The notes: generated by a model from the letters alone, not told the origin. A stretch of DNA of 64,000 nt from an uncultured bacterium (GCA_902802585.1 CADCMR010000005.1:23022-87021), one strand, 5' to 3'. Shown: positions 5,404 through 48,316, numbered from the stretch's first letter. Made by a program: numbers and translations.

Positions 5404-5406
5404 TCC

Positions 5407-6300
5407 ATGGATTCATCGCTGACAATCGTCGTGCCGTGCTACAACGAGGCGGAAAACATTCCCGCCGTCTTCCCGCCGCTGCTGGCGTTCGCGAAGGAGC
5501 GCGGCTGGCGCGTGATCGCGGTGGACGACGGTTCGCGCGACGACACGCATAATCTGCTCCTGAAAATGCAGGAAGCCGCGCCGCATCTGGCGGTGCTCCG
5601 CCATAAGCTCAACCGGGGCTACGGCGCCGCCACCAAGACCGGACTCCGCGCCGTGGAGACGGAATACGCGATTACGATCGACGCGGACGGACAGCACCGC
5701 CTGGAGGACGTGGAGAAGTGTTTCCGCCGGATCGTGGAGACCGATGCCGACCTGGTGGTCGGCGAGCGCGTCAACAACGAATCCGGCGGCTACCGCACGC
5801 TCGGCAAGTGGGTGATCCGTTCGTTCGCCTCCATGCTGCTGAGCCTGCCTGTCCGCGACCTCAATTCCGGCATGAAATGCTACCGGATGGGCGAGGCGGT
5901 CTCGTATCTGGACCTCTGCCCGGACACGATGGCGTTCAGTGACGTGATCCTGCTCCTGATGGTGAACGACCGGAAACTGGTCTCCCGGACGGAGATCGAA
6001 GTCGCGCCCCGCCTCGCCGGGAAGAGCTCGATCGGCACGCGGACCGCGCTGGTCACGCTGGCGGAGATCCTGAACCTGGCGATCCTGCTGCGTCCGATGA
6101 CGACGTTCTTCCGGATCGCCCTGACGTTCGTCCTGCTCGGGCTGGCGTGGGGCGTGTTCATCTACTGCAAATCGCGGACGGTCACGTCGGCGTCGGTCAT
6201 GCTGATCATGCTCGGCGCGGTGAGCTTCATTCTCGGGCTGCTGGGCGAACAGCTGGCGCAGATCCGGAAAACCCTGGCGAGACGGAACCATGGTCGCTGA
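5407..6300 (+). CDS. GT2 polyprenyl-phosphate glycosyltransferase (GtrB/ArnC/DPM1-like)
   Basis: Motifs VVPCYNEAENI, AVDDGSRDDT and TIDADGQH (DxD), plus two C-terminal TM helices typical of bactoprenol-phosphate sugar synthases. Confidence 0.85.
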   Translation: MDSSLTIVVPCYNEAENIPAVFPPLLAFAKERGWRVIAVDDGSRDDTHNLLLKMQEAAPHLAVLRHKLNRGYGAATKTGLRAVETEYAITIDADGQHRLEDVEKCFRRIVETDADLVVGERVNNESGGYRTLGKWVIRSFASMLLSLPVRDLNSGMKCYRMGEAVSYLDLCPDTMAFSDVILLLMVNDRKLVSRTEIEVAPRLAGKSSIGTRTALVTLAEILNLAILLRPMTTFFRIALTFVLLGLAWGVFIYCKSRTVTSASVMLIMLGAVSFILGLLGEQLAQIRKTLARRNHGR

Positions 6301-7132
6301 CCGGGACACCGCACCAAACGTCGCAATGGTCATGCCGGTGTACAACGCCGGACGGTTCCTGCGCGAATGCCTGGATTCTGTTTTCGCCCAGACGTTCCGC
6401 GACTTCATCCTGATCGTGTGCGACGACGGCAGCAGCGACGAAAGCCCGCGGATTCTGGCGGAGTACGCTGCGCGCGACAGCCGCCTGCGGATCCTGACCA
6501 ACCATGAAAACCTCGGGATCCCGTTGACCCGCAACAAACTTCTGGCGGCGGTCCCGCCGGAATGCGAATATATTGCGATCATGGATTCGGACGACATCTG
6601 CAAGCCGGACCGGCTGGAACGGCAGTTGAAGTTCCTGTCGGACCACCCGGAGCTCTGCGGAGTCGGTTCGTCGCTGGAGATCATCGACGAATATTCGCGT
6701 ACGACCGGATTCCGCTGCTACCCCGTTTCGCCGGAGGAGATCCGCCTCACCATGCCGGACCGCAACGTCATTTCGCAGTCGTCGCTGATGCTGCGCCGCG
6801 CCGCGATCGAAAGCGTGGGCGGTTACCGGACCGGATTCGACTGCTGCGAGGACTACGACTGCTGGCTCCGGATGCTCGAACAATACGACTTCGCGAACCT
6901 GCCGGACCCGGTGCTGAAATACAGGATGTCGCCGGCGCAGTCCAAGCAGCGCAAACTCCGCCTCACACTCCGCAATACGTTGAGGATACAACGCGACTAC
7001 CGGACCCGTACGCATTCCTGGACATTCCGGTCGAGGCTGCGGGCGTTCGCCGGGCATGTCCTGCTCTGTCTGCCGCCGCCGCTGGTCCTGAAACTGTTCG
7101 AGCTGATGACCTACCGGAAGGAGCAGGCATGA
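6290..7132 (+). CDS. GT2 family glycosyltransferase
   Basis: Motifs VMPVYNAGRFL, CDDGSSDES and MDSDDI. The start overlaps the previous stop by 11 nt. Confidence 0.85.
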   Translation: MVADRDTAPNVAMVMPVYNAGRFLRECLDSVFAQTFRDFILIVCDDGSSDESPRILAEYAARDSRLRILTNHENLGIPLTRNKLLAAVPPECEYIAIMDSDDICKPDRLERQLKFLSDHPELCGVGSSLEIIDEYSRTTGFRCYPVSPEEIRLTMPDRNVISQSSLMLRRAAIESVGGYRTGFDCCEDYDCWLRMLEQYDFANLPDPVLKYRMSPAQSKQRKLRLTLRNTLRIQRDYRTRTHSWTFRSRLRAFAGHVLLCLPPPLVLKLFELMTYRKEQA

Positions 7133-27927: not shown

Positions 27928-28144
27928 GTGCCATCGTGTTTCGCGCCGAAACTTGACTAGCAAATCTGACCAGGTTGCGTTTTCCTGCGGTTTCCCCGGA
28001 AAAAGTGTTTGCCGCGCAGGAAAAGACGCTGGAAAAAAACTGCGCGGGCAATTATAGTAAACGGAAACAGGGCGCTGTCTCCGCCGCAAGGGGGTGCGGA
28101 GCATTGAGCGTCCCGGACCAAACCAAAACAGGAGGGAACTATCC

Positions 28145-28729
28145 ATGAAAGGTCTGACCCAGAAGCAGAAAAACATCATCGAATTCATCAACGAATTCAT
28201 GACCACGCAGGAAATGGCGCCGACCATCTACGAGATCGCGGAGCATTTCCACATCAAGACTTCGACCGTCTTCGCCCACATTCGGGCGCTGCAGAAGAAA
28301 AACTACCTCACGCGCAGCTCGAAAGCCCGAAGCATCAGCCTGTCCCATCCGAAGAAGCGCTCGCGGTTTCCCGCCGGCGTCCAGTCCATCCCGTTCCACT
28401 GCATCGGCGAGGCGTCCGCGGGGGAACCAGGCGAAAAGACGCTGGTGTGCGACGTGACGCGTCTGCTGGACAGTCCCGCGAAGGAGGACCTCTATGCCGT
28501 GCACGTTCACGGTTCGGACCTGAACGGCAGCGGCATCTTCGACGGCGACATCCTGATCGTGAAGAGCAACCCGGCGGCCGTCAGCGGCGAGGACATCGTC
28601 GTGGCGGAGGAGAACGGACGCGAAATCCTGAAACAGGCGAAGGACGCGATCCTCAATGACACGGCGTCCGATGCACCGACCGTAAAGGGGGTTGTCATCG
28701 GGCTCCAGCGACGGATTGCCAGAACATAA
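28145..28729 (+). CDS. lexA: LexA-like transcriptional repressor (winged-helix N-domain plus S24-like C-domain)
   Basis: MKGLTQKQKNIIEFI...PTIYEIAEHF...HIRALQKKNYL aligns with the LexA N-domain. SAGEP matches the AAGEP cleavage region. GIFDGDILIV and IVVAE..ILKQ match S24 motifs. Confidence 0.8.
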   Translation: MKGLTQKQKNIIEFINEFMTTQEMAPTIYEIAEHFHIKTSTVFAHIRALQKKNYLTRSSKARSISLSHPKKRSRFPAGVQSIPFHCIGEASAGEPGEKTLVCDVTRLLDSPAKEDLYAVHVHGSDLNGSGIFDGDILIVKSNPAAVSGEDIVVAEENGREILKQAKDAILNDTASDAPTVKGVVIGLQRRIART

Positions 28730-34717: not shown

Positions 34718-37672
34718 ATGCGCAAATCATTTTGCTGTCTGCTGTTCTTTTTGCTGACTGCCCTGCCGTTCCTCTGCGGAGCCTGGGAGACCAAACAGGC
34801 CGTCGACAAGGACGGGTTCTCCTACGAATACATTCCCGACGATCCGTTCTCCACGCGAGCCTACGTGCTGGAGAACGGTCTGAAGGTCTTCCTCTCGCGC
34901 AACACCATCGAGCCGCGCATCACATCTCTGATCTCCGTGCGCACGGGCGGAGCCGACGACCCGGAAGCATCGACCGGTCTGGCGCACTACTTCGAGCACA
35001 TGATGTTCAAGGGCAACGGCGTGTTGGCGTCGCTGGATTGGGAAAAGGAGGCTCCGCTGCTGGACAAGCTCGCGGAGCTGTTCGACCAGTACCGCAAGGA
35101 GACTGATTCCGACAAGCGCGCCGCCATCTACCGCGAGATCGACAAGGTCTCCGGCGAGGCGGCAAAGTATTCCAATGATGAATATTGGACGCTCGTGCGC
35201 GGCCTCGGCGCGACCGACACCAACGCCTGGACCGGATACGACGAGACCGTCTACATCAACAACATCCCGTCCAACGCGCTCGACAAGTATCTCTACCTCG
35301 AATCCGTCCGGTTCTCCTCCATCGCGCTCCGCAGGTTCCACACCGAGCTCGAAGCCGTCTACGAGGAGTTCAACCGCTCCCAGAACAACGACGGACGCCG
35401 CGCCTCCACAGCGCTCCGCAAGCAGCTCTTCCAGTCGCATCCCTACGGCCGCGACATCCTCGGTCTGCCGGAACACCTGAAGAGTCCGTCCATGAGCGAC
35501 ATCTCGCTCTTCTTCTTCGAGTATTACCAGCCTTCGAACATGGCGGTCATCCTCGCAGGCGACCTCGATTATGAAGACGCCATGCGTTCCATCCGCAAGT
35601 ATTTCGGCGTCTTCCGCACCGACAAGGTCAAGCAGGAGGAAGCCCGCAAGACCCTCGGCGAAAGCGGACGCGTCCGCCGCGAACAGCCCATCGAATCCGT
35701 TCGCACCGCGGAGGTCTTCGGCCCCGACGCCGAAAGCATCCAGATGGCGTTCCGGTTCGAGGCGGACCGCGACACCGAGGTCATGCTGGAGATGATCAAC
35801 AGCATCCTGAACAACAACCTGTGCGGCATCATGGAGCTGAATCTGGAGCTGCCGCGCAAGGTAATGTCCGAATCCAGCGGCGTCCACGCCATGCGCGACT
35901 ACCTGCTGCACGTGTTCGCGGCGGAACCGGCGCAGGGCAAGACGCTTGAGGAGACGCGCGACCTGATCCTCGGCGAACTCGAAAAGCTCAAACGCGGCGA
36001 GTTCCCCGACTGGCTCCCCGGTGCGATCGTGAACAACCAGCGCATGGCGCTTATCACGGTCTCCGAGGACGCCTCCACCGCCGCGCACGTGCTGAACGAT
36101 GCGTTTATCCAGGGGCGTCCGCTGGTTGACCAGCTGAACGACATCGACGCGATGGAAAAGATTACCAAGGAGCAGATCGTCGAGTTCGCGAAGAAGCACT
36201 ACCGCGACAACTACGTGATCGTCTACAAGCGCCAGGGCGAGGCGAAGGACATCGTGAAGGCGGTGAAGCCGCCGATCACGCCCGTGCCCGTCCACGAGGA
36301 ACTTTCCGAGTTCGGACGCAATTTCGAGCTCCTGCCCGTCGAACCCGAAAACGGTCCCGTCTACGCCGATCTCGAAAAAGACCTGCACATCACCCCGATT
36401 GCCGACGGCGTCACCCTCTTTACCTCCAAAAACGACATCAACGAGCGCTTCTCCCTCTCGCTGCAGTTCCCCGTCGGTACGCGCATGGACAAGGAACTCG
36501 CCCTCGCGCTCGGCTGGATCGACGAACTCGGTACTGACAAATACACCGCCGAGGAGCTCCGCCAGGAGTGGTTCAAGCTCGCCGCCCGCATGGGCACGTT
36601 CGTGGAGACCGACCGCTGCGGCTTCACGCTGAGCGGACTCCAGCGCAATTTCAAGGAATCCCTCGCGCTCTTCAACCATGTGATTTCCAACGTGAAGGCG
36701 GACGCGGCTTCGTACAAGACGCTGGTCGATGCCGTCGAGAAGAGCCGCGCCGACCGCCGCACGAACCGGAGTTCGCTGCTTTCCGCCGCGTCCGGATTCG
36801 CGATCTACGGCGGCCCGGAGAACTATTCCGCCGACATTCTGCCGGTGAAGAAAATGCGCGAAATCGACCCGGAAAAGCTGATCGGACGCATCCACGGACT
36901 GCGCGGATTCACGCACGACGTGGTGTACTACGGTCCCGCGGACGACAAGGAAGTCAGGGAGCTGCTGGCGGGCGTCATCGACAAGAATGGCGCGCCCGGC
37001 ACGTTCCCGAAGACGAAGTTCTTCCAGGCGGTCGAACCGGATGAAGATGTGGTCTACGTGGTGGATTACCCCGGCGCGGCGCAGGCGGAGATTGAGGTCG
37101 TCCGCCTCGATGGAAAGTACCAGGACAAGCCATACGCGTTCGAGGACATCTACTCCACGCTCGAATCCCGTACGTTCATGAACGAACTGCGCGAACGCCA
37201 GGCGCTTGCGTATTCGGTCGGAGCAGGATACTCCAACCCCGGACGCGATCCAAACGGCTACTCCATGTCCTACGGCGCGATCGGCACACAGCATGACAAG
37301 TTCTACACCTCGCTCGACGGCGTGATCGGTTTGCTGAACAATCCGGAGACCGGAGCCGCCGCGGCGTTCGAGTCCTCGCGCCAGAACCTGCTGTCCCAGT
37401 ACCGCAACGTCCGCGTGCAGAAGGAAAACTACTACGGCGTCCGCCGCACGATGAAGAAGTTCAACCTGACGGAAGAATCGCGGAAGACCGCCTACGAGGG
37501 GCTGCTCAAGATGAGCATGGAGCAGTATCTTGACGAGGCTAAGAAGCGCGTCGCCGGGAAGAAGAACATCATCCTCATTCTTGCCGACCTGAAGCAGATC
37601 GACCAGGAAGCCCTCAGGAAATACGGCAAGGTCCGCATCCTGAAGACGGACGAACTCTTCCCGAACGACTGA
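34718..37672 (+). CDS. M16 family (pitrilysin/insulinase-like) zinc peptidase, long single-chain form
   Basis: Signal peptide. Inverted zinc motif HYFEHMMFKG (HxxEH). 984 aa with duplicated M16 halves. Confidence 0.9.
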   Translation: MRKSFCCLLFFLLTALPFLCGAWETKQAVDKDGFSYEYIPDDPFSTRAYVLENGLKVFLSRNTIEPRITSLISVRTGGADDPEASTGLAHYFEHMMFKGNGVLASLDWEKEAPLLDKLAELFDQYRKETDSDKRAAIYREIDKVSGEAAKYSNDEYWTLVRGLGATDTNAWTGYDETVYINNIPSNALDKYLYLESVRFSSIALRRFHTELEAVYEEFNRSQNNDGRRASTALRKQLFQSHPYGRDILGLPEHLKSPSMSDISLFFFEYYQPSNMAVILAGDLDYEDAMRSIRKYFGVFRTDKVKQEEARKTLGESGRVRREQPIESVRTAEVFGPDAESIQMAFRFEADRDTEVMLEMINSILNNNLCGIMELNLELPRKVMSESSGVHAMRDYLLHVFAAEPAQGKTLEETRDLILGELEKLKRGEFPDWLPGAIVNNQRMALITVSEDASTAAHVLNDAFIQGRPLVDQLNDIDAMEKITKEQIVEFAKKHYRDNYVIVYKRQGEAKDIVKAVKPPITPVPVHEELSEFGRNFELLPVEPENGPVYADLEKDLHITPIADGVTLFTSKNDINERFSLSLQFPVGTRMDKELALALGWIDELGTDKYTAEELRQEWFKLAARMGTFVETDRCGFTLSGLQRNFKESLALFNHVISNVKADAASYKTLVDAVEKSRADRRTNRSSLLSAASGFAIYGGPENYSADILPVKKMREIDPEKLIGRIHGLRGFTHDVVYYGPADDKEVRELLAGVIDKNGAPGTFPKTKFFQAVEPDEDVVYVVDYPGAAQAEIEVVRLDGKYQDKPYAFEDIYSTLESRTFMNELRERQALAYSVGAGYSNPGRDPNGYSMSYGAIGTQHDKFYTSLDGVIGLLNNPETGAAAAFESSRQNLLSQYRNVRVQKENYYGVRRTMKKFNLTEESRKTAYEGLLKMSMEQYLDEAKKRVAGKKNIILILADLKQIDQEALRKYGKVRILKTDELFPND

Positions 37673-37677
37673 CCTGG

Positions 37678-38298
37678 GTGACGATGAATTCCGCTTTCAA
37701 AGCCGTTGTCCTGCTCGCTGTGGCGGCGCTCCTCTGTGCCGCCACGTTCATCCTTGTGCCCCGGCTGCGGTCCTTTTCCACCGTCTCCGACGGCTATGGA
37801 TCCGTGGAGGGGGAAGAGGCGACGGAAGAGGAAACCGGGGTGGATGTTTCTTCCCCGGCGGGTGCTTCCGATACAGGCTCCTCCCGAACGAAACAGCCAA
37901 GCCGGAACCGTTCATCCGATCCGGTAAGCAACCGGGAGCAATCCAAGTTTGACGTCGGGGAGATGCGGAACGAGGTCGAAGAGATGGTCCGGAAATTCCG
38001 CGGCACGCCCGAGGAACGCCAGGAGGTGATCGAGGAGTGCGAAGGCGGAAAAGAACTGATCCGGCTGTTCGCCGACCTCAGCGAGTCGTCCATCGATAAG
38101 ATGTCGCCCGAGGAGCTGGAAAAGGAACGCGAGAATTTCGAGAAGGAATACCGCGCGCAGCTCGATTTCATCCAGACCGGACAGCTTCAGCGCATGCTCA
38201 AAACGCCCGAGGAAGAGGAAGTCATCGGCAGTACCATCGAAGCGGTGCAGGAGTTCCTGGAACGGATCGACGGCGCGTTGCATTCCGCCGGTTATTGA
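37678..38298 (+). CDS. secreted acidic hypothetical protein
   Basis: Signal-like AVVLLAVAALLCAATF and a Glu-rich helical C-terminal part. GTG start at 37678, alternative ATG at 37684. Confidence 0.55.
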   Translation: MTMNSAFKAVVLLAVAALLCAATFILVPRLRSFSTVSDGYGSVEGEEATEEETGVDVSSPAGASDTGSSRTKQPSRNRSSDPVSNREQSKFDVGEMRNEVEEMVRKFRGTPEERQEVIEECEGGKELIRLFADLSESSIDKMSPEELEKERENFEKEYRAQLDFIQTGQLQRMLKTPEEEEVIGSTIEAVQEFLERIDGALHSAGY

Positions 38299-38328
38299 GT
38301 GTATCCTGTCCTTTGACCAGGCTTTTTT

Positions 38329-38370
38329 GCCGCCTTTCGGGATGAATCGCCGAGGCGGCTTTCTTTTTGT
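38329..38370 (+). terminator. rho-independent terminator
   Basis: GCCGCCT-17 nt loop-AGGCGGC is followed by TTTCTTTTTGT. Confidence 0.6.
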
Positions 38371-38672
38371 TTCGCCCATGAACTCAAGACCGGGATACAC
38401 TGCTGAAACAATCAATCCTTTTGCGGAGAGAATATGTTTCTGTTTCAGAAAGGACATCATTCTCATGATATATGAGTAGATAAATTTCGGGATGGATACT
38501 TCGTTCTTTTCTGTTGCATAATATGTTTATTCTTATCAAGTTAAAAATGTGCTATATGAAACAAAGATAGAACTTGGATGTAAAAATGAAAAGTGTGTTT
38601 TTCCTCTGATTCATGCATGATCCGAATAAAAGAAAAAAACAGACAAAAAGGTCCCAAAATAAAAAAAACAGG

Positions 38673-38700
38673 TTGATTTTTTCTGAGAGCAGTATATATT
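38673..38700 (+). promoter_or_regulatory. sigma70-like promoter (TTGATT-N16-TATATT) for the EPS locus
   Basis: The hexamers were read directly at the end of a ~390-bp AT-rich spacer, 60 nt upstream of the ATG at 38761. Confidence 0.5.
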
Positions 38701-38760
38701 ATATATTAAACACGGCATGTGCCGAAATCAGAAAAACGGTGAACCGGAAGAGAAAAACAC

Positions 38761-39099
38761 ATGGAACTTTCCAACTTTGAAAACGATGGAATTGAAGTCA
38801 TCCAAATCAAAGGACATCTTTCCGCCGAGAATGCGGAAACATTGCGGTCAAAATTTCTTGAGCTGTTTGCTACTCAGCGGAAATTTGTGTTTGATCTGTC
38901 TGAGATGGAGAATCTGGACAGCACCGGGCTCGGAACGCTGGTGTTCTGCCTGAAAAGCTGTACGGAATTCAACGGGACGATGAAGCTGGCGAACTTGACG
39001 CAGCGGGCACGGATGATTTTCGAAATCACGAAAGCCTACCGGATTTTCGATATTTACGACGAACTGGACGAGGCGATCAAGGCCGCCCGCGAGGCGTAA
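38761..39099 (+). CDS. STAS domain protein (anti-sigma-factor antagonist, SpoIIAA/RsbV-like)
   Basis: 112 aa. The LDSTGLGTLV motif carries the conserved phosphorylatable Ser position. Overall STAS pattern. Confidence 0.85.
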   Translation: MELSNFENDGIEVIQIKGHLSAENAETLRSKFLELFATQRKFVFDLSEMENLDSTGLGTLVFCLKSCTEFNGTMKLANLTQRARMIFEITKAYRIFDIYDELDEAIKAAREA

Positions 39100-39153
39100 A
39101 TGCACGGTAAGTCGTATGCCGGAGACGGCGGATAAACAGGCGGAGGCGCGGAA

Positions 39154-39960
39154 ATGGGGCTGGGTTTGAACGGCTCGAAATCAACGGAACGGGAAAAGAT
39201 TAAAGCTCCCGGGAAGGGGTTTCGCATGTTCGGTCCGGATATTTCCCCTGGCATGGACGAACTGCCGTTCCTGTCCGGATCGTTTTCCTCTCATGCCAAA
39301 ACGTATGCGAAGCTCCGTACATGTGCTATCAAGCGCATCCGCGTTCTTTCCGTGGACGGGAGCCCCGTTATCAAGCGATGGCTGGATATTTTCGGCAGTT
39401 TATTCGCGATTGTTCTGTTGCTGCCAGTATTCCTGGTTGTCGCGGTCTGGCTGAAACTTGATTCGCCGGGACCGCTCATATATCGGCAGATTCGCATCGG
39501 GCTGCACGGCCGCCCGTTTTATTTTTACAAATTCCGCTCCATGTACATCGACTCCGATGCTCGGCGGGCGGCGCTGCTGCAGGCGAACGAATCCAAGGAC
39601 GGCGTGATTTTCAAGATGAAAAACGATCCCCGCATCACGAGGTGCGGTCGGTTCATCCGGAAATACAGCATTGATGAATTCCCCCAGTTTTTCAATGTCC
39701 TGCTTGGCGACATGAGCCTGGTCGGGCCGCGTCCGCCTCTTCCGTCCGAGGTGGCTCAGTATTCGCTCGACGACTGGAAGCGGCTTGCCATTCTGCCGGG
39801 CATCACCTGCATCTGGCAGATTTCCGGGCGCAGCGACATCCCGTTCCGGGAACAGGTCGTGCTCGACAAGGAATACATACGGGGGCAGGGCTTCTGGAAG
39901 GACGTGCTGATCCTGTTCAAGACCATTCCGGCGGTCCTTGCCGGGAAAGGGGCGTACTGA
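39154..39960 (+). CDS. phosphoglycosyl transferase (bacterial sugar transferase, WbaP/PglC-type, initiating enzyme)
   Basis: Motifs GPLIYRQIRIG, YKFRSM, SIDEFPQFFNVLLGDMSLVGPRPP and PGITCIWQISGRSD. GGAGG ribosome-binding site 7 nt before the ATG at 39154; later in-frame ATGs at 39226 and 39253 are possible. Confidence 0.88.
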   Translation: MGLGLNGSKSTEREKIKAPGKGFRMFGPDISPGMDELPFLSGSFSSHAKTYAKLRTCAIKRIRVLSVDGSPVIKRWLDIFGSLFAIVLLLPVFLVVAVWLKLDSPGPLIYRQIRIGLHGRPFYFYKFRSMYIDSDARRAALLQANESKDGVIFKMKNDPRITRCGRFIRKYSIDEFPQFFNVLLGDMSLVGPRPPLPSEVAQYSLDDWKRLAILPGITCIWQISGRSDIPFREQVVLDKEYIRGQGFWKDVLILFKTIPAVLAGKGAY

Positions 39961-39961
39961 A

Positions 39962-41380
39962 ATGATGAAAGCGCTGCTTTTCTGCCCTGTCCATGGCAAC
40001 GCCGAACTGAAACGCTATTTCCCCGGCTATCCGGTCTACCTGCTTCCGTTCGCGAACAAACCGGCGATTGAGTTTGAGCTTGATTTCTGTTTCCTGAGCG
40101 GGATACGGGATGTCCTGATCGTGTCAGACGAGGAATCCGAGATCCTGCGCACGCAGTACCGGAGCGGCGAAACGCTCGGGTTGAACATCCGTTGTGAAGG
40201 AACCGGCCCTTCCATTCCACTGAAGCGGATCATCCAGCGGAACAAATCGTTTTTCTGCGGATGCGACCTTCTGGTTTTCTCCGGGCTTTTCCTGCCGGAA
40301 TACGACAAGCGGAATCCGCATGAGCTGAATATCGGCGCGGATGAAGTGAAGGGGTGTTCCTACGGCGGGGCGGCCTGGTACCTGATCGGACGCGACCGGC
40401 TGGACGAGCTCCCGGACGACTGGAGCGGATTCCGCGACGAAGCGCCGGTGAACGGTTTCGCGGTTCCCGGCATCCGCGATTACTACAGGCACAACATGCG
40501 TCTTGCCGGAAGCGACATAGAGAAATACAACCTGCCCGGTTTCAGTGAGGGGAAGAACAGTTTCGTGGGGCGCGACGTGCGGATTCCCGGAACGGCGCGC
40601 GTGAGGCCGCCTGTGATCCTCGGGAACGGGATCCAGTTCGGACGCGGCGTCCATGCCGGACCGAACATCATCGTGGGCGACAACTGCGTGATCGACAACG
40701 GAACGGCGATCAGGAATTCGATCGTCCTGGGCAACACGTATGTCGGCAGGAACCTTGAAATCGAAGGGAAAGTGTGCAGCGGGAACCGCATGGTTGATCC
40801 TGAATCCGGGATCGTGATCAATGTCGTGAACGAATCCGTCCTGTCCGAAATCGAACCGGATGAATACGGCAGGTGTCCGCTGTATCAGCGCGCACTGGCA
40901 TGTCTTCTTCTTTTTCTCCAGACGCTGCCGTATGTTCTGCTCCGGCCGTTCCTGGAACACCACTCCACGCTTGTGGAGTGCATGCTTGAAAACGGGGCGA
41001 GGCGCACGATGTCCTTGAACGCGTATGTGCTGCCCCGGAGGAGTGCCGCGGGAAGGCTGTTCCGCAGGCTGACGCTGAACAAGTATCATCTGCTGCCGTA
41101 TGCGGCGGCGGGGAAGGTGCGCCTTGTCGGGAACTGTCTGCTGGAAGCGAACGAACGGAACGAGGCGTTTGTCGGGAACCTGCCCGGCTATGCTCCCGGC
41201 ATTTTTTCCTACAGCGAATTTCTCGGCCATGAAAATGAGCCGTATCAACTTGAACTCGACGAGCAGTACTATGCGTATGCCATGAACTGCTGGTTCAACA
41301 TCAAAATACTGACGGGGATTCTGCGGCGCAATTTCAGAGCGGAAGGGCGTCCGTTGCAGCAGAGAGGAGTTATGGAATGA
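39962..41380 (+). CDS. three-part fusion: degenerate nucleotidyltransferase-like domain, left-handed beta-helix (hexapeptide) domain, catalytically degenerate sugar-transferase (PGT-like) domain
   Basis: The N-terminus aligns with the NTP_transferase fold (LLPFANKPAIEF...IRDVLIV) but GGxGTRL is replaced by PVHGNAEL. Hexapeptide repeats span VILGNGIQFGRGVHAGPNIIVGDNCVIDNGTAIRNSIVLGNTYVG. The C-terminus aligns with the PGT core (KVRLVGNCLL, PGYAPGIFSY, WFNIKILTGIL) but lacks KFRxM and the Asp-Glu dyad (LNKYHLLP versus SIDEFPQ). Confidence 0.75.
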   Translation: MMKALLFCPVHGNAELKRYFPGYPVYLLPFANKPAIEFELDFCFLSGIRDVLIVSDEESEILRTQYRSGETLGLNIRCEGTGPSIPLKRIIQRNKSFFCGCDLLVFSGLFLPEYDKRNPHELNIGADEVKGCSYGGAAWYLIGRDRLDELPDDWSGFRDEAPVNGFAVPGIRDYYRHNMRLAGSDIEKYNLPGFSEGKNSFVGRDVRIPGTARVRPPVILGNGIQFGRGVHAGPNIIVGDNCVIDNGTAIRNSIVLGNTYVGRNLEIEGKVCSGNRMVDPESGIVINVVNESVLSEIEPDEYGRCPLYQRALACLLLFLQTLPYVLLRPFLEHHSTLVECMLENGARRTMSLNAYVLPRRSAAGRLFRRLTLNKYHLLPYAAAGKVRLVGNCLLEANERNEAFVGNLPGYAPGIFSYSEFLGHENEPYQLELDEQYYAYAMNCWFNIKILTGILRRNFRAEGRPLQQRGVME

Positions 41381-43473
41381 TTTTATCTGATAACGGCACT
41401 ATTGACGTTCCGGTTCCGGCGTCCGCATCCGGGACGGAAGGCATGGGGCAGGATGCGAACTTGCCTGCCATTTTCCGGTTTTTACGTCTGTTCAAACGCG
41501 ACCTCTGGTGCTGGCTCAACGCCTTGCAGAAAATGTGGTGGCTTTTCCTCATTTTCCCGTTCCTTTTCGCCATCGGCCTGTTCATGGTCCGGACGATGAC
41601 GACGACGAACGTGTATGTGGCGAACTGCGGAATGATCCGCCAGTCGATTTCTGACACACACCACGAGGTTCTTCCGCCCGGGTATGTGAACATCCAGAAG
41701 TCCGTCATCATGACGCTGTTCAAGAGCCGTGCCGTGCTGGAGGAGACCGTGAAACGTCTCAGCCTTCCCTACACAGCGGAACAGCTTTTCCGCAACATCG
41801 ACGTCAAATCGGAAAAGAATTCGGACTATTACTATGTGTCCGCATCGTCCAAGGACCCGACGATCGCCGCCACGCTTGCCAATACGCTTGCCGACGTGTT
41901 CATCGAGGAATACAAGAAACTGATCCGGAAGAACCTTGAGGATCTGAACGACAGTTATGTCCGGACCCAGAATGACTTGGAAAAACAGATTGAGGAACAG
42001 GGCGAAAAATTGAAAGACCTGTGCGCCGAGAACAATCTGACGATGATCGAGAGCGATATTGCGTTCAACAATCAGCGGCTGCTCCAGGTCGAAGACCGGT
42101 TGACGCAAGCCGCATCCACCCTGGATTCCGCGAAACAGGCGTTGTATGAACTGCAGGGTGAGCTTGCCAACACGCAGGAAAACGTTGTGACGCACAGGGA
42201 AAAAAGCACTGTCGTGGAGGACAACCTCAGGCAGGAAGAATCCGTATTGGCAAGGTATGAAGAAGTTTATGCGAGGAACAATCCCATCCTGATTCAACAG
42301 CGTGAGGTCGTTAGAAAGTTAAGGGCTGAAGTTGAGAAAAGTCAGCAGGAGGATGAGACGTCGGAGAATGAACTGGACAGGAAAATCATCATTTCCCGAA
42401 ATCCCGCCTATACTCAAATTCTGGTCTCCATTGCCGCAAGGAAAGCCGAGATTTCGTCTTTGACGAACGATATCAAGCTCAACAATGAAATCGCGGTTCA
42501 GCTGCGTGCCAGACGCGAGCTGCTGGCATCGATCCAGCCGGTCATCCGGCAGATGGAGATGGACCTCGCGCAGTACAAGGAACAGCTCAATAAAAACAAG
42601 CTTCAGATTGCCACAATCCGCAACTTCCTGGACCGTTCCTTTTCCGACATATCCATTCAGGAACTGGCGAAGCCCCCGAACAGACCGCTGGGACGCAAAC
42701 GCAGCGTCTGGGGGATCATCGGTTTCATTCTGGGAACGTTCATCTCGCTCTCGATCATTTTCGGGTGCGAACTCTTCAACCTGACGGTTCGTTCCAGCAT
42801 CGATATCGAACAGGCGCTCCAGATCAAGGCGTTGGGGCTGATTCCGGTCCTGGACCAGGCTCACCGTGCCAATTACTACAGCGCCCTTCAGACGATTCTA
42901 AGCAACGGGGAAGAGTATTTCTCCAAGTTGTCGCCGGACCATCCCCTTCTGGTCGTGTTCGCTCCGAACAAGCGCGCTGACCTGGACGGGAAGATCCGGG
43001 AGGAGTTCTGTGAGACTTTGAAGATCCGCCTCGGGTGCAAGTACGTCGTGATTTCGCCGCTGGTCGGGGAAGAGGAAGCTCCGTCGAATCAGACTCCGGT
43101 ATTGATCAACGATTACCTGTATCAGTTCACCGATGAAGCGCCGAAGCCGGACAAGGATCACTGCGTCTACTTCAAACTGGATGACCTTTCATTCATTTCG
43201 CCTCTGACCGGCGACCAGATCCAGCGTATCAAGACGGCATACAAGTCCGTCTCCCTGATCGTGTGGGACCTTTTCGATTTTGAGCTGCACCGCCAGCTGT
43301 TTGCTGAAATCGCCCACAATGCCGACCTGACGATTATTCCGATGAAATATGCGCAGACTTCAAAACTGAGCATCTACAGGATCCTTCAGTTCCTGAAGGC
43401 GTTCCATGTCAACAATGTCGTCGGATTCCTCTACAACATCAACAACAAGCACTACAGCAAGGCGAGTTTATGA
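41377..43473 (+). CDS. polysaccharide co-polymerase (Wzz/GumC/Wzc-like, PCP-2a architecture) with degenerate C-terminal kinase-like domain
   Basis: ATGA overlap with the upstream gene. Two TM helices flank a long coiled-coil periplasmic region. The C-terminal ~230 aa have a MinD/BY-kinase-like layout (LLVVFAP..., SLIVWDLFD, ADLTIIPM..VVGFLYN) but no GxxGxGK[ST] Walker A and no Tyr cluster. Confidence 0.75.
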   Translation: MILSDNGTIDVPVPASASGTEGMGQDANLPAIFRFLRLFKRDLWCWLNALQKMWWLFLIFPFLFAIGLFMVRTMTTTNVYVANCGMIRQSISDTHHEVLPPGYVNIQKSVIMTLFKSRAVLEETVKRLSLPYTAEQLFRNIDVKSEKNSDYYYVSASSKDPTIAATLANTLADVFIEEYKKLIRKNLEDLNDSYVRTQNDLEKQIEEQGEKLKDLCAENNLTMIESDIAFNNQRLLQVEDRLTQAASTLDSAKQALYELQGELANTQENVVTHREKSTVVEDNLRQEESVLARYEEVYARNNPILIQQREVVRKLRAEVEKSQQEDETSENELDRKIIISRNPAYTQILVSIAARKAEISSLTNDIKLNNEIAVQLRARRELLASIQPVIRQMEMDLAQYKEQLNKNKLQIATIRNFLDRSFSDISIQELAKPPNRPLGRKRSVWGIIGFILGTFISLSIIFGCELFNLTVRSSIDIEQALQIKALGLIPVLDQAHRANYYSALQTILSNGEEYFSKLSPDHPLLVVFAPNKRADLDGKIREEFCETLKIRLGCKYVVISPLVGEEEAPSNQTPVLINDYLYQFTDEAPKPDKDHCVYFKLDDLSFISPLTGDQIQRIKTAYKSVSLIVWDLFDFELHRQLFAEIAHNADLTIIPMKYAQTSKLSIYRILQFLKAFHVNNVVGFLYNINNKHYSKASL

Positions 43474-44528
43474 TTTCCAAATTCCATCATCGGTTGGCGC
43501 TTTCCCTTCTGTCCGTTCTTTCTCTTGTCGCAACCTCCTGCAACAATACGCCGTTTGGAGGCATTGCCATTCCCGGAATGACGTCCGTTGTCCCGAGGCA
43601 GGACAAAGATTCCTATTCGATTCAGGAAGAACTGAAAGCTCTTCATGTGGTGAATCCTGTTCCATACGAAATCCGTCCCGGCGACCAGTTCCAGATGTCG
43701 GTGTACAATCAGCCTTCTCTTACAACCGGTATCCTGGTCGCTCCTGACGGAACGGTCAGTCTGCCGCTGGTCGGAATCGTCAAGCTTTCCGGGATGAATT
43801 TGGAGGATGCCACAGAACTGGTCGAAGAGAAACTTTCCAAGTATCTGAAATCTCCGATTGTCACATTGGCTCCCCAGGCTGTGAGCGGTTTCTATTTCAC
43901 GATCGCAGGACGTGTCAATAAGCCCGGCAACTATTCCGTTTCGGTCGGACAGACCCATCTTCTTGATGCGATTTCCCTTGCCTCCGGGTTTGCGACGGGG
44001 CAGTTCCACGGCGATACCGTGGAGCTTGCCGACCTTGACAATGCCTATGTCAAACGGAACGGCAAACAGTTGCCCGTGGATTTCAAGAAGGTGGTTTACG
44101 AAGGGGACGACCTGAACAACATTCCCCTCATGAACGGGGATTACATCTATGTGCCGTCCACCATGAGCGGATATATTATTTTCCTGGGTGAAGTCGGAAG
44201 CAATACCTATGTCGGGTTTACCGAAGGGATGACGCTTCTGCAGGGATTGTCCTATGTGAATGGATTGAAGACGGAAACGTACAGTTCGAATGTCCGCGTC
44301 ATCCGCGGCGGCATGAACAATACGGTCGTCTACACGGTCAACGTTGACAAGATTCTGAATGGAAAAATGAAGGATTTCGCCTTGAATGCGAATGATATCA
44401 TTTATGTCCCGCAGGATGGATTCTCCAAATGGAACACCATGATCCGGAAAATGCTGCCGACCCTTCAGCTTGTCAACCTTCTCGCCGGACCGTTCGGATC
44501 GACCATTCTCGGGTATTTCAGCCTCTGA
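43470..44528 (+). CDS. wza: polysaccharide export outer-membrane lipoprotein (Wza-like; Poly_export plus SLBB domains)
   Basis: ATGA overlap. Lipobox LVATSCNN. Motifs IRPGDQFQMSVY, PDGTVSLPLVG and GRVNKPGNY. Confidence 0.88.
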   Translation: MISKFHHRLALSLLSVLSLVATSCNNTPFGGIAIPGMTSVVPRQDKDSYSIQEELKALHVVNPVPYEIRPGDQFQMSVYNQPSLTTGILVAPDGTVSLPLVGIVKLSGMNLEDATELVEEKLSKYLKSPIVTLAPQAVSGFYFTIAGRVNKPGNYSVSVGQTHLLDAISLASGFATGQFHGDTVELADLDNAYVKRNGKQLPVDFKKVVYEGDDLNNIPLMNGDYIYVPSTMSGYIIFLGEVGSNTYVGFTEGMTLLQGLSYVNGLKTETYSSNVRVIRGGMNNTVVYTVNVDKILNGKMKDFALNANDIIYVPQDGFSKWNTMIRKMLPTLQLVNLLAGPFGSTILGYFSL

Positions 44529-44558
44529 CGCATTCTCTCCCCCGGAACTGGTGCGGAT

Positions 44559-45953
44559 ATGTCTATCCTGAAGATCATTGAATTTTCGTTTCTGTTTTTA
44601 TATTTGCTTCCGTTCATGACGGCATTGTGCTGTCTTTTTCCGGGTTTCCGGCATATCTGTTTCGCGGGAATGGTTTATTTCACCAGCAACGAGATCTCAA
44701 TCAATTTCGTGCCGATGCCGGACTGGAGAGGCACGGCACGTGGATATGCGTTTACAGGCGTGTCCCTTTTTGCCGTTCCGGTTCTGCTGAGCACGTTTTT
44801 TATGCCGCAGTATAAAGTGAAGCTGTTTCCACCGGGAACTTTTTTCTATTTCCTATACTATCTGGTGGTCCTGCTTTCCGGCATGAACGCGATCCACAGG
44901 CATCAATGGGGGTTTGAAGTTTACAAGATGTTCTGGATGTATGTCACATTTCTCACCACATTCAATTATCTGAACAACTGCAAGAATCTCAACTATTTCA
45001 TTTGTGTGGTGTGCTTTGTTCTGATCATCCTGTTTATAATCGGATTCAAACAGAAATACCTGGAGTCACGATTCCAGATCAGTTCGACCTTCCCGCACCA
45101 GAATTCGCTTGCGCTCTATCTGGAGGCTTTCGGGCTTCTTTCTCTGGGCGTCCTGATGAACGAACAGATGAACAAGTTGATGTTCGTGATCGTCCTCGGT
45201 GCGTTCGTCAGCTCCCTACTTCTTATCCTTTTTACATTTTCACGAGGCGGTTTCGTGATCTTTTTCGGCGGCATCGCCATTGTCTGCGCCCTGTCCAACC
45301 TGTGCAACGGTTTCTCGCTCAGGCGGCTGCTTCTGATGCTGATCGGACTGACATTCGTGCTGTGCGCCGTGGGATATGCGCTGCCGCGTATCATTCTGCG
45401 TTTCACGAAAGCCCCTGAATCCTCCAAGAACACCCGAATCGCGTTTGCTCTCGCTGCCAAGAGAATGGCAAACGATTATACGTTTGGCGTCGGTGCAAAC
45501 AATTTCAGCGAGTATTCCGGCGGGGACGGGAAATATGAATACGCAAGAGAGCTTTATCCCGTCGTATATCCAAAGTACGGAGGAATCGTCGAAACGATCT
45601 ATCTGCTTGTCGCCGCGGAATGCGGCTGGACCGGACTGGTCATTCTCCTCCTGTGGTTCATGTATTATTATATCTCGTCCATAATAAGTGTCGTTGTCCT
45701 CCGGAAAAAACCATGTTCCGGCATAGCGATCGGGGTGTTTGCCGGACTGACCTGCTGGTATTGGCATTCCTCGCTGGAATGGAGCCTGAAGCAATTCAAC
45801 AATTTTGCACAGCAAATGATCATATATGCCCTCATCGGAGTAATCGCCGTCAACCGGAAGAACATCAAGGCGGCCTATGCACGGATGTTGGCAAGACAGG
45901 CGGCGAGCCTTAATCAGGCAAAAGCGCTTCCCGCTTCGAATCCGCAACATTGA
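44559..45953 (+). CDS. O-antigen ligase/polymerase family membrane protein (Wzy-like)
   Basis: Polytopic and AT-richer. It has a Wzy_C-like FSRGGF...loop region and 464 aa. Confidence 0.75.
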   Translation: MSILKIIEFSFLFLYLLPFMTALCCLFPGFRHICFAGMVYFTSNEISINFVPMPDWRGTARGYAFTGVSLFAVPVLLSTFFMPQYKVKLFPPGTFFYFLYYLVVLLSGMNAIHRHQWGFEVYKMFWMYVTFLTTFNYLNNCKNLNYFICVVCFVLIILFIIGFKQKYLESRFQISSTFPHQNSLALYLEAFGLLSLGVLMNEQMNKLMFVIVLGAFVSSLLLILFTFSRGGFVIFFGGIAIVCALSNLCNGFSLRRLLLMLIGLTFVLCAVGYALPRIILRFTKAPESSKNTRIAFALAAKRMANDYTFGVGANNFSEYSGGDGKYEYARELYPVVYPKYGGIVETIYLLVAAECGWTGLVILLLWFMYYYISSIISVVVLRKKPCSGIAIGVFAGLTCWYWHSSLEWSLKQFNNFAQQMIIYALIGVIAVNRKNIKAAYARMLARQAASLNQAKALPASNPQH

Positions 45954-46048
45954 ACCTGGGATTTCCCGCAACACGCCTGATGTCTGCGCGGACAGTTTTT
46001 GATGCGGTGGTTCTGTTGGGCGGGATCCGTGCCGGACGCCGCTGGCTG

Positions 46049-48316
46049 TCAATGCGGAACCTTCATGCCGCGGATTTTCAGGGACGATCCTGCCTCCGGC
46101 TCCAGCACGATGCGGATCGGCCAAATGGCTTCGGCGTGGTAAATGGTGCCGGAGGATCCCGGATTCGGGGCGGGGATCAGCTTGGCAGGACTGTTCTTCA
46201 CCGGGATCAGGTAATCCTTCATGTCTTCGGAATCAACCTGGACGGATCCGATCTCCATTTCCTCCCAGGGGGCTTCCACAGACGATCTCCGTTCCGGAAT
46301 AATAGTCCGCATTGGCTCCGGTGAAGGCCGTGGTGCCGGCGGCGCTTCGCATGTGCCGGACAGGTCTTCCTCCCCGACCGTGCAGGAAGCCGTGCCGCTG
46401 AGTGCCGTGACCCTGGCATGGACCGTGCCCCGGCACAGGCGCAGGACAATCCGCCCCTTTCCTGATGCCCGGACGGTGATGCCCGCACCGCCGTTATCCC
46501 GGAAAACCACCCTGCTGAAGAGAAGCCATCGCCGTTCTTTTGCCTCGAACGCCTCCGTCCAGGACGCCGCGTCATGGATGCCGGTTCCGATGCGGGAGGT
46601 GTTCGGCCACTTCAGGTAGAGGTTCGGCGGCGCATTCCGGTCGGTCACCCACACAAACGCGGGCTTCGACATGTCCTGATAGGCGTCGCAGAGCTGGGCG
46701 TGGTAGGTGTTCCGGTCGGGCGAGGTGTATTCTTTCCGTTTCGTTTTGAACTCGTCGAAATCCGCATGCCCGCCGGTTTCCTTCTGGGCGCAGCAGAAAA
46801 TGCAATAGCGGAGCGCGAGCCAGTCGGAGAAGAACTCGCACGGCATTCCGAGCGGTTTGCCCAGCTTGATGAAGTGCTCCCCGCCGTCCGTGCTGTAGGA
46901 ATACTGCACGGCGTACTGGAGGAACGGGACGTCCGCTCGGACCACGACCTGCGTTTTTTCGCCGGATTCGAGCGGAACGGACGTAATTTCCTCCGTGGTG
47001 TATTTTCCGTCTTTGTTGAGCTGGCGCATCACGGCGAGCCGAGTTTTGCCGTTCTCTCGGACGGCGGCGACGAATGTGCAGTGCTGGGAGAAGAGTCCGA
47101 TCCCCGCCATGTCTCCGTCCTTCAGTCCGGAGTAGTCCAGCACGGTCTGCGCGGAGTCGCCCGGTCCGAAGATCTGCTGGACGAGCACGTTCTGCGTTTC
47201 ACGGATCGCGGAGGACGTGCGCTGCGGCTTCAGGCGGAGCCAGCCGGGACGTTCCGTGAGCGACCAGCCGTCCTCCGCTGGATGGTGGTTCCACTGCCAC
47301 TGCAAACCGAGTTCGTTTGAGCCGAAACGGTCGCTTCGCCAATGGTCGGGATTGATGGCGGGGCTTTTCGTATCGACGGCGGGCTTTTGGTATGTGAGGA
47401 CGGGTTTCACCTCGGGCCAGCCGTCCTTCCATTCCACGGGCAGCAGGAACGGGATGCGCCCGAGCTTGCCGTGGTCCTGGAAGATGATCGACCACCAGTC
47501 GCCGTTTTTGAGCTGCACGAGGCCGCCCTGGTGCAGTCCGGACCCCTCGTAGGTCAGCTGGGAATCGCACACGACCTTGTGTTCGTACGGTCCATAGACG
47601 CTGTCCGAGCGAAAACAGTGCTGCTTGCCGCCGCCGGGGTTGAAGATGTAGTATTTGCCGTCGATCCTGTAGACGTGCGAGCCCTCGCAGATCGTCCCGC
47701 GGATGACCGTCTTCTCCGGCGTGACGACCTTCGTCAGGTCGGCGTCGAGTTCGGTTACCTTCAGCTCGTTCTGCCCGTGGAACACGTAGACGCGGCCGTT
47801 GTCATCGAAGAACAGCCCCGGGTCGTACATCTTCGCCCGGATCGCGTTCATTTTCCACGGTCCCGCCACGTCTTTCGCGCGCGACACCAGGAACACGCCG
47901 TCCACGCCGGTCTTGTTTTCCGGTCGGTTGTCCCACACATAGCACACGGAGTAGAACATGCCGTCGTGGTAGCGCAATGAGGGCGCCCAGCTACCCGCCC
48001 CGTATGCGTTCCCGTGCTTGCCGTCGAGGTCGTAGCGCGGGTCTTCAAGGATTTTGTAATCGGGAATGGAGAACCCCGCCGGCTCTCAGTTCACCAGGTC
48101 GCGCGAATGCATGACCGGATTGCCGGGCACGAGGTGGAACGACGAGGACTGATAGTAGAAATCGTCGCCCACACGGATCACCTCGGAATCGGGGTAGTCG
48201 GCGAACAGGACCGGGTTGGAGTACGTGCCGTCGCCGTTGTCCGCCCCGAACGAGATCGAGGCGGAAACGGCGGACCATATCGCCAGTGCGATGACCGCGG
48301 CGGTGAACTTCTTTAT
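46049..48316 (-). pseudogene. GH43 beta-xylosidase/alpha-L-arabinofuranosidase with C-terminal lectin-like domains, apparently disrupted (ATA at start position; in-frame TGA at 48086-48088)
   Basis: The same frame reads (I)KKFTAAVIALAIWSAVSASISFG...NPVLFADYPDSEVIRVGDDFYYQSSSFHLVPGNPVMHSRDLVN-TGA-EPAGF...SWAPSLRYHDGMFY and continues into the 642-aa track ORF. The TGA sits where the conserved DLVNW Trp is expected. Confidence 0.75.

Follow-up and report, generated by a model that had tools for sequence, protein, structure and literature searches.

In PslE, a polysaccharide co-polymerase (PCP) of Pseudomonas aeruginosa, neither the catalytic Lys nor the Tyr cluster is present; the protein shows no kinase activity and does not have a Wzb partner (PMC13434223). 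The bacterial tyrosine (BY) pseudokinase EcpK acts as a scaffold (PMC12004946), and phosphorylated EpsW activates the phosphoglycosyl transferase (PGT) EpsZ of Myxococcus by promoting the EpsZ dimer (PMC12802240). All4160 of Anabaena is a STAS-Bac_transf fusion, the function of which is switched off by phosphorylation of Ser74 (bioRxiv 10.64898/2026.04.08.717354), and SypA, a STAS protein, has its gene in the syp polysaccharide locus of Vibrio fischeri (PMC4517449). Here, a locus with counterparts of these components was analyzed in a 64,000-nt stretch of DNA from an uncultured bacterium (GCA_902802585.1, CADCMR010000005.1:23022-87021; hereinafter, the window). The locus occupies positions 38299-45953 and carries six co-directional genes, which probably constitute an operon specific to Victivallales (Lentisphaeria) and inherited vertically in this lineage, combining the core of a Wzy-dependent pathway for a surface or exopolysaccharide with built-in non-catalytic regulatory or scaffold parts. 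The following genes were identified by reading of open reading frames (ORFs) and by Pfam and NCBIfam assignments:

38761-45953, plus strand: cassette of six co-directional genes within the stretch 38299-45953, with family support for the gene products
38761-39099, plus strand: single-domain STAS protein of the anti-sigma-antagonist type, 112 aa (Pfam STAS, 7e-18)
39154-39960, plus strand: small monotopic PGT, 268 aa (Pfam Bac_transf, 1.4e-63; TIGR03025, 4e-84)
39962-41380, plus strand: three-domain pseudoenzyme, 472 aa, a fusion of nucleotidyltransferase (NT)-like, left-handed beta-helix (LbH) and PGT-like domains (family profile compared with the PDB)
41377-43473, plus strand: PCP-2-type PCP, 698 aa (PslE profile match, transmembrane (TM) helices)
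43470-44528, plus strand: Wza-type outer membrane polysaccharide export (OPX) protein, 352 aa (Pfam Poly_export, 6e-19; SLBB_2, SLBB)
44559-45953, plus strand: polytopic Wzy_C-domain protein, 464 aa, with at least eight TM segments by hydropathy (Pfam Wzy_C, 2.4e-8)

This arrangement agrees with an earlier note on the same DNA, made from the sequence alone, which had described six co-directional genes with two ATGA junctions. Both overlaps were read directly in the sequence, at 41377-41380 and 43470-43473, and one nucleotide separates the PGT stop codon from the start of the fusion gene when the database start is used (ATG 39962, giving 472 aa, not TTG 39938). The intact PGT gene together with the Wzy_C, PCP-2 and OPX genes supports the proposed Wzy-type core for initiation, polymerization and export. 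The ORF and family scan also upheld the proposal that the locus has no additional glycosyltransferases, no flippase and no active kinase/phosphatase pair: no further ORF with a family match occurs in 38299-45953, whether for a glycosyltransferase, a flippase or a phosphatase. Two of the proteins look catalytically dead, as had been supposed, since the fusion has lost the motifs of its NT-like and PGT-like domains and the PCP has lost its kinase motifs.

The PCP of the cassette resembles PslE, the partner of PslD (PMC13434223; PDB 9v75, 9v6l), in being a PCP-2 protein with two TM helices and a long periplasmic coiled coil. As in PslE, the Walker Lys and Tyr cluster are missing from its kinase-like domain, a Wzb is lacking, and the protein is paired with a Wza-family channel. 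It matches PslE in sequence only in the periplasmic part, and its cytoplasmic domain belongs to a family of its own (~57 aligned clusters). The psl operon also carries glycosyltransferases, Wzx and sugar-nucleotide genes, whereas the cassette has none of these. In Myxococcus xanthus, the EpsV protein is likewise accompanied by a BY pseudokinase, EcpK, which serves as a scaffold without a phosphorylation cycle (PMC12004946), and EpsW is a small single-domain phospho-protein, as the STAS protein of the cassette may be, acting post-translationally on the PGT through dimerization (PMC12802240). The cassette differs from the Myxococcus system in that its pseudokinase is fused to the PCP, its proposed regulator is a STAS protein and not a receiver domain, and its PGT is a small monotopic enzyme and not a large PGT; its pseudo-PGT has no Myxococcus counterpart. 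As for All4160, studied with HenR and Alr3423, it shares with the cassette a STAS domain with a phosphorylatable Ser tied to the Bac_transf family, the two being fused in All4160 and adjacent here. The syp locus, with SypA and SypE (PMC4517449, PMC10120452), similarly has a STAS gene within a polysaccharide locus. In contrast to All4160 and SypA/SypE, the cassette has no kinase or phosphatase gene, either in the locus or among the scanned ORFs of the window.

Relatives of the cassette were sought by a pattern-based scan, seeded on the fusion, of one genome per GTDB species. The fusion was found in 19 species genomes, mostly from rumen and gut; 17 of the 19 records are labelled Lentisphaeria, Lentisphaerae, Victivallales or Victivallaceae, and the other two only "uncultured bacterium". 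As far as each contig reaches, the six-gene order is kept in 19/19 fusion-bearing genomes, and the metagenomic loci L001-L008 show the same order. Homologues of the fusion form approximately 90 clusters at 62-86% identity, all of them ~472 aa long, and a few further homologues are at 23-39%; the ones with a source name come from metagenome-assembled genomes of Lentisphaeria. The site next to the gene string AcrB-DUF748-M16-206aa, which precedes the cassette in the window, is common to at least six species (L009, L010, L011, L012, L015 and L018). Another clade has the cassette after yidC-jag, and a 39%-identical relative has it after a hybrid histidine kinase gene. Identity of the concatenated fusion and PCP sequences is 74-88% within the context groups (AcrB/M16 and YidC/Jag) and 68-75% between them, a pattern by genomic context that fits vertical descent with one putative relocation.

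The base composition of the cassette follows the same distribution. Its GC content is 52.9% compared with 60.9% in the rest of the window, and GC at third codon positions (GC3) is 0.63-0.73 in the cassette genes versus 0.74-0.89 in flanking genes (0.74 in the 206-aa gene and 0.81-0.89 in the others). The cassette is the sole multi-kilobase low-GC stretch of the window and the dip is sharply bounded; the windowed GC and per-gene GC3 comparisons thus agree with the earlier statement that the locus is AT-richer than the DNA on either side. The same holds for 18/18 orthologous loci with flanks, where the difference is 0.017-0.125 (0.05-0.125 in the rumen clade). The per-gene GC3 dip also occurs in L001, L005 and L007 and is weaker in L003. 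Because the dip is retained in lineages with protein identities as low as 32-43%, it cannot mean recent acquisition by this genome. The lower GC and GC3 would be a long-standing property of the cassette and could stem from weak codon bias or from exchange by recombination within the order. For annotation, this implies that a sharp GC dip at a surface-polysaccharide locus can be stable and inherited and need not indicate recent transfer. In addition, dN/dS is 0.017-0.18 for the six cassette genes and 0.09-0.23 for the dead domains, indicating purifying selection, and identical dead-state motifs persist across orthologues that are 39-86% identical.

Several observations weigh against the reading of the cassette as a vertically inherited operon with a Wzy-dependent core. 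In the same genome pair, dS is 0.45-0.71 for the cassette and 0.27-0.30 for the flanking AcrB and M16 genes, an approximately twofold difference. AcrB groups the window with L009 and L015, and L011 with L012, whereas the cassette groups the window with L009 and L010, and L012 with L015 and L018. Since dS is doubled and the groupings differ, some exchange of the cassette between lineages may have occurred. The fusion-seeded scan covers the cassette where the fusion exists, and the share of Victivallales genomes without the cassette lies outside its scope. As for the pathway, no flippase or glycosyltransferase adjoins the cassette in the loci examined, bar one faint GT1_4 match in L003, so that the pathway is incomplete as seen. 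The Wzy_C score (34.3 bits) is barely above the cutoff of 31.7, and this domain is common to ligases too. Neither a STAS kinase of the RsbW type nor a PP2C phosphatase was found among the scanned ORFs of the window. Finally, the AlphaFold2 model of the C-terminal domain of the PCP, based on a 21-sequence alignment, was unusable (predicted local distance difference test, pLDDT, 41), and the fold of this domain is therefore assigned by profile-profile homology alone.

The first of these observations bear on an alternative account, in which an old cassette has been exchanged among Victivallales by homologous recombination through the conserved flanks, in a way comparable to capsule or O-antigen switching. 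Such exchange, combined with relaxed codon bias, would sustain its low GC and fast divergence and would fit the raised dS and the discordant species groupings of AcrB and the cassette. Flank proteins that are 92-96% identical beside cassette proteins that are 74% to 86% identical also speak for it, as do the downstream accessory genes (for a pyruvyl transferase, a PP-loop-like protein and a 455-aa protein), which vary between loci. However, cassettes from one genomic context group apart by similarity from those of the other, and weak codon bias alone would raise dS. Moreover, AcrB is near saturation at 92-96% identity, the discordance concerns few sites, and the groupings compared are identity groupings and not phylogenies. 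Exchange by recombination is therefore considered somewhat unlikely as the main explanation, and vertical inheritance of the operon is preferred.

Kinase-dead PCPs and the control of PGTs by STAS proteins have already been published; as far as could be found, the pseudo-PGT fusion is the part of the cassette without precedent. The NCBI annotation of this protein is hypothetical. A literature search found no description of an NT-like/LbH/pseudo-PGT fusion, and within the limits of that search its location beside an active PGT seems to be undescribed as well. The protein contains an NT-like domain (residues 1-160), a left-handed beta-helix (160-305) and a monotopic PGT-like membrane domain (306-472). 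Its direct Pfam matches (NTP_transferase, Hexapep and LbH_EIF2B) are weak, with NTP_transferase scoring 16.2 against a cutoff of 21.2. A family profile built from 13 members was compared with solved structures. The most significant similarity was noted with the NT-LbH enzyme tlr0611 (8x7s, 1.7e-21), followed by eIF2B epsilon (1.5e-16), ST0452 (2.6e-13) and RmlA (~1e-12), and the profile additionally matched the monotopic PGT PglC (8g1n, positions 326-462, 7e-6). With a profile restricted to the last 165 residues, the E-values were 2e-5 for PglC and 2e-3 for WbaP. The AlphaFold2 model of the fusion has a mean pLDDT of 69.8, with 80-93 in the NT domain. According to the analysis of this model in the Foldseek program, the top matches are 8x7s, GDP-mannose pyrophosphorylases (including the GMPPA/GMPPB complex) and RmlA; only NT-LbH enzymes were returned, and the assignment of the PGT-like domain comes from hidden Markov model evidence. 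One member of the fusion family, P0093, has a precomputed PF02397 match.

The NT-like domain lacks the GxGxRL loop and the catalytic Lys. In the alignment, LFCPVHGNAEL stands opposite LAAGSGERL or LAAGKGTRV, and YPV stands opposite RPK or IPK; the loop is variable within the family. An NT and LbH fold with a degenerate nucleotide-binding loop is also known in eIF2B epsilon and gamma and in GMPPA (PDB 6i3m, 5b04, 7d72; profile E-values from 1.5e-16 to 3.8e-9), where it forms a subunit with a regulatory or scaffolding role. Unlike the fusion, in which the NT domain is short (~160 residues), these proteins are soluble and eukaryotic and have no membrane PGT-like domain. By analogy with them, the NT-LbH part of the fusion may serve as an oligomerization or sensing module.

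As for the C-terminal domain, bifunctional PGT fusions exist, for example Neisseria PglB. The C-terminal 165 residues of the fusion align with the core of PglC and share with PglC and WbaP (PDB 8g1n, 8e37, 8t53) a Pro-kinked helix and the PGI(T/F) and LD..Y motifs. The single hydrophobic helix at residues 312-330, with its Pro kink (TLP), mirrors the re-entrant-type helix of the small PGT at residues 79-97. Unlike in PglC and WbaP, the dyad and the GPRP motif are replaced, the domains are in the order NT-LbH-PGT, and there is no intact catalytic partner domain. The fusion consensus FRkLTL(d/n)k(y/f)hlLp...lrLvGn stands opposite IRSLSLDELPQLF...MSFIGPRP of PglC. Since this profile alignment places them opposite the PglC Asp-Glu pair, the residues corresponding to the catalytic dyad are Asn-Lys in the fusion of the window. 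They are (Asn/Asp)-(Lys/Arg) in Victivallales orthologues, and the two most distant family members show other replacements. The GPRP position reads GNCL, and both the dyad and GPRP are replaced in every family member examined. In comparisons with L005 and L001, dN/dS is 0.14-0.17 for the NT domain, 0.12-0.13 for LbH and 0.18-0.23 for the pseudo-PGT domain. Judged by these ratios and motif states, the fusion is a protein kept by selection in a dead state.

A fusion that is partly alive would be one in which the LbH domain or a remodelled NT site catalyzes, for example, sugar acetylation, with the pseudo-PGT domain being only an anchor. The LbH segment is in fact the best conserved part of the fusion by dN/dS and has invariant G, P, D and Y columns, and the related NT-LbH proteins ST0452 and GlmU have acetyltransferase activity in their LbH domains. 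LbH acyltransferases such as LpxA, GlmU and PglD normally rely on a catalytic His; no invariant His was found in the LbH columns of the family alignment. Furthermore, the best LbH profile matches are of the eIF2B epsilon and GDP-mannose pyrophosphorylase type, in which the LbH is structural, and the NT loop varies across the family. Residual catalysis thus appears unlikely, and a non-catalytic role of the fusion is favoured. The pseudo-PGT domain would dock beside the active PGT in the membrane or dimerize with it.

The genes upstream of the fusion encode its possible partners. The small PGT retains its motifs, as read from the translation (KR..D, KFRSM, the Asp-Glu dyad in SIDEFPQ, VGPRP and PGIT), and has one hydrophobic helix of the re-entrant type at residues 79-97; it is the initiating enzyme of the pathway. 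The STAS protein scores 57.7 bits with TIGR00377 (cutoff 53.45), and its DSTGLG motif with the phosphorylatable Ser is invariant in five STAS orthologues. It is the most conserved component of the cassette, with dN/dS of 0.017-0.025 and an identity of 96-99% where the remaining cassette proteins are at 70-86%, and of 74% where the others are at 39%. Despite this conservation, the GC and GC3 of the STAS gene are among the lowest in the locus, level with those of the Wzy and Wza genes. By analogy with All4160, the STAS protein may be a phospho-switch with a direct effect on the PGT step; the kinase and phosphatase acting on it would then have their genes elsewhere.

Tentatively, the STAS protein, the active PGT and the fusion could jointly gate the first committed step of polysaccharide synthesis as a three-part system not described before, in which the dead PGT would heterodimerize with the active one as a regulatory subunit and the nearly invariant STAS protein would deliver a partner-switching phospho-signal. 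If true, this model would make the fusion the first pseudo-PGT recognized as a regulatory subunit, and the arrangement would be a split-gene counterpart of the cyanobacterial STAS-PGT fusion. Post-translational control of the first, substrate-limited glycan step is an active question, for which EpsW-EpsZ (2025) and All4160 (2026) are the first worked cases. The cassette offers a compact natural system for testing pseudo-PGTs as regulatory partners, since the STAS switch, the intact small PGT and the membrane-anchored dead PGT copy, which is joined to a module of the eIF2B/GMPPA type, adjoin one another in a tightly conserved operon.

The PCP has TM helices at residues 53-71 and 444-462 on either side of the coiled-coil periplasmic domain. 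There was no Pfam match for this protein, and its TIGR03007 and TIGR01006 matches were below threshold. Comparison of its profile with the PDB gave PslE as the best solved-structure match (2.8e-7, positions 133-468), whereas a PDB sequence-profile search with the C-terminal domain (the last 200 residues) found nothing. A profile search of 1.84 billion representatives retrieved 186 proteins at E <= 1e-10, and 56 full-length clusters (636-696 aa) were aligned together with the protein of the window. The GK[ST] signature is missing in 22 of the aligned PCPs, including that of the window, where the Walker A position reads VFAPNKRADLDGK; the other 35 keep GSDxxxTGKSF, which is similar to the Walker A motif GxSPSxGKTF of Wzc. 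According to the hhalign program, the dead subgroup is homologous to the GK[ST]-bearing one (probability 100%, E 6e-45), and the latter is homologous to the BY-kinase domains of ordinary PCP-2a proteins with the Walker A motifs aligned (98.3%, E 1.9e-14); the direct comparison of the dead subgroup with BY-kinases gave 94% and E 1e-7. In the window, Walker A' (DxDxR) is replaced by KYVVISP and Walker B (hhhhDTPP) by IVWDLF, and the C-terminal Tyr cluster is missing, with one conserved Tyr (Y693) near the C-terminus. The dN/dS of this domain is 0.09-0.15. By profile homology, the cytoplasmic domain of the PCP is a BY-kinase homologue without a P-loop, as the earlier description of a Wzc-like PCP had it.

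Neither the locus nor the related loci contain a gene for a Wzb or PHP phosphatase. Its motif losses and the missing phosphatase gene place the PCP, as predicted from sequence, in the phosphorylation-independent PCP-2 subclass of PslE and EpsV-EcpK, and by analogy with PslE it may work independently of phosphorylation. Since the PCP belongs to the kinase-dead class, a missing kinase/phosphatase pair is expected. The kinase-independent PCP-2 class, which was recognized recently, hereby gains a fused P-loop-less example with traceable GK[ST]-bearing sisters. The sister subgroup (P0241-P0356, representative clusters) keeps the Walker A-like GSDxxxTGKSF, yet WELF replaces the DTPP of Walker B; the family therefore shows a graded loss of kinase motifs. 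Among the family members examined, P0274 (GRRGTGKS) alone conforms to the strict [AG]xxxxGK[ST] pattern.

The OPX protein matches PRK15078 at 7e-30 over model positions 82-369 of 380 and is probably a lipoprotein, as its N-terminal signal contains ...LVATSC. The best NCBIfam matches of the PCP, the exporter and, weakly, the PGT (TIGR03007, TIGR03013, TIGR03027) are to families of XrtA/PEP-CTERM exopolysaccharide loci. Membership in these loci was rejected because none of the TIGR030xx scores comes near its curated cutoff (for example, 69 bits where 279 are required). Genes for an exosortase, EpsI or a tyrosine autokinase were not found in the locus or in related loci.

The Wzy_C gene is always the sixth gene of the cassette, and its product is most likely a Wzy polymerase, the alternative being a WaaL-type ligase. 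If the protein were a ligase of the WaaL or PglL type, a glycan linked to undecaprenyl pyrophosphate would be transferred to lipid A-core or to proteins, and the product would not be a capsule or exopolysaccharide. By the Pfam family definition, the domain is common to Wzy polymerases, WaaL ligases and PglL O-oligosaccharyltransferases, and the marginal score and the lack of adjoining glycosyltransferases or a flippase would be consistent with such a function. Against it, the PCP-2 and Wza-type OPX genes always lie directly upstream of the Wzy_C gene, overlapping or tightly spaced, and the PCP-2/OPX pairing is a hallmark of an exported high-molecular-weight polymer (PslD-PslE, Wza-Wzc; PMC13434223). 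The ligase is thus regarded as quite improbable and the polymerase is retained.

Least credible is the view of the earlier note that the locus is a recently acquired AT-rich accessory exopolysaccharide island with degenerating enzymes: the dip is real and sharply bounded, glycosyltransferases and a flippase are missing and catalytic motifs are lost in two proteins, but the same order in 19/19 species, the dip in 18/18 loci and the grouping of cassette similarity by genomic context contradict horizontal acquisition, the dead domains with dN/dS of 0.09-0.23 and dead motifs kept family-wide (in orthologues 39-86% identical) are not decaying, and the site on the M16 side, at which the note had proposed to check related genomes for presence or absence, holds the cassette in at least six species. 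Of the two properties by which that note would have recognized a core locus, conserved synteny was found (order 19/19 and a shared site), whereas uniform composition was not, the dip being real.

The region between the 5' border of the locus and the STAS gene contains the first three of the following elements; the fourth lies elsewhere in the window:

38305-38372, plus strand: two tandem intrinsic-terminator-like hairpins with T-runs, at the 5' border of the locus
38403-38448, no strand assigned: inverted repeat CTGAAACA-N24-TGTTTC-TGTTTCAG, read in the sequence, ~270 nt upstream of the promoter
38673-38700, plus strand: sigma-70-type promoter with -35 TTGATT, a 16-nt spacer and -10 TATATT (consensus scan)
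28063-28082, no strand assigned: imperfect palindrome GGAAACAG-GGCG-CTGTCTCC upstream of the lexA-like gene at 28146-28729

The tandem terminators close the upstream gene string AcrB-DUF748-M16-206aa. Folding of 38299-38380 in ViennaRNA gave -22.2 kcal/mol and two hairpins with a T-run after each. The spacer 38299-38760 has 36.4% GC, so that a terminator followed by an AT-rich spacer is present as previously described. The promoter is preceded by an A-tract and followed by a leader of ~55 nt up to the STAS ATG. A TTGA(T/C)TTTT ... TAT element occurs 85-98 nt 5' of the STAS ATG in 13/13 rumen-clade orthologous loci; the -35 element and its position are kept in all 13, and the strict -10 pattern in 9/13. 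This conservation of the promoter element in all 13 loci supports a single operon promoter, and the earlier report of one promoter-like element before the six genes (TTGATT-N16-TATATT) holds. Small GC-rich hairpins, such as CGGCATGTGCCG at 38722-38733, occur just 3' of the promoter in ~8/13 loci, with differing sequences. A conserved 5'-leader hairpin (38700-38760 and orthologues) was tried and rejected, as RNAalifold gave no consensus and single-sequence z-scores of -2.6 to +1.0 were non-significant. The Rfam scan of 37500-46500 found no RNA family, its lone match (E 0.39) being noise.

The inverted repeat at 38403-38448 exists as reported, and its supposed echo of the half-sites near the lexA-like gene did not stand: the spacing of the two elements differs, only the GAAACA hexamer is in common, and the repeat is not conserved. 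The lexA-like gene product contains LexA_DNA_bind and Peptidase_S24, and the palindrome at 28063-28082 is a candidate autoregulatory box. Among orthologous spacers, a GAAAC/GTTTC pair was found only in the closest relative, L009, with a 3-nt spacing that differs from that of the window, and the repeat is absent from the other 17 spacers examined. It is probably not a conserved operator. The window contains 8 copies of CTGAAACA against 1.3 expected. Six of them lie outside the spacer; none of these flanks a palindrome, and four are in frame as CTG-AAA-CAG. For these reasons, the excess was ruled out as the mark of an operator. There is no second TGAAAC...GTTTCA pair in the window, and the compact form GAAAC-N(0-12)-GTTTC occurs once, at chance level.

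The glycosyltransferases, flippase and sugar-nucleotide genes of the pathway may be located elsewhere in the genome. A separate glycan cluster at 3820-9489 consists of a PMT_2/ArnT-like gene (3820-5403), a GT2 gene (5407-6300) and a 975-aa ORF (6562-9489), which lies 29 kb from the locus and has Polysacc_synt_3 (flippase-type) and GT9 matches. This cluster could be a source of the missing flippase or glycosyltransferases. Outside the cassette, the window contains one GT2 protein, two PMT_2 proteins and the Polysacc_synt_3/GT9 ORF, and nothing ties them to the cassette.

Most relatives (L001, 16158-18774; L007, 16103-20097; L003, 15808-18344; L011-L019) carry extra genes after the Wzy gene. These encode a polysaccharide pyruvyl transferase, an SGGxDS protein of 391-441 aa, read as PP-loop-like, and a 455-aa coiled-coil membrane protein. 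A tblastn search of the window with the accessory genes of the relatives (pyruvyl transferase, 441-aa, 455-aa, PGM and LbH299) gave no match, and because these genes have no homologue in the window, its lineage has a shortened locus.

On the downstream side, GH43 and GH127 genes converge on the cassette, and a GH43 gene directly follows the cassette in the window and in its nearest relatives, L005 and L009. The converging GH43 gene (46049-48316, minus strand) has been inactivated in the genome of the window: ATA stands where the ATG start codon would be, at 48316-48314, and the codon of a conserved Trp, TGG, is TGA at 48088-48086. Both lesions are G-to-A changes on the coding strand, and the orthologues in L005 and L009 are intact, with lengths of 764-766 aa.

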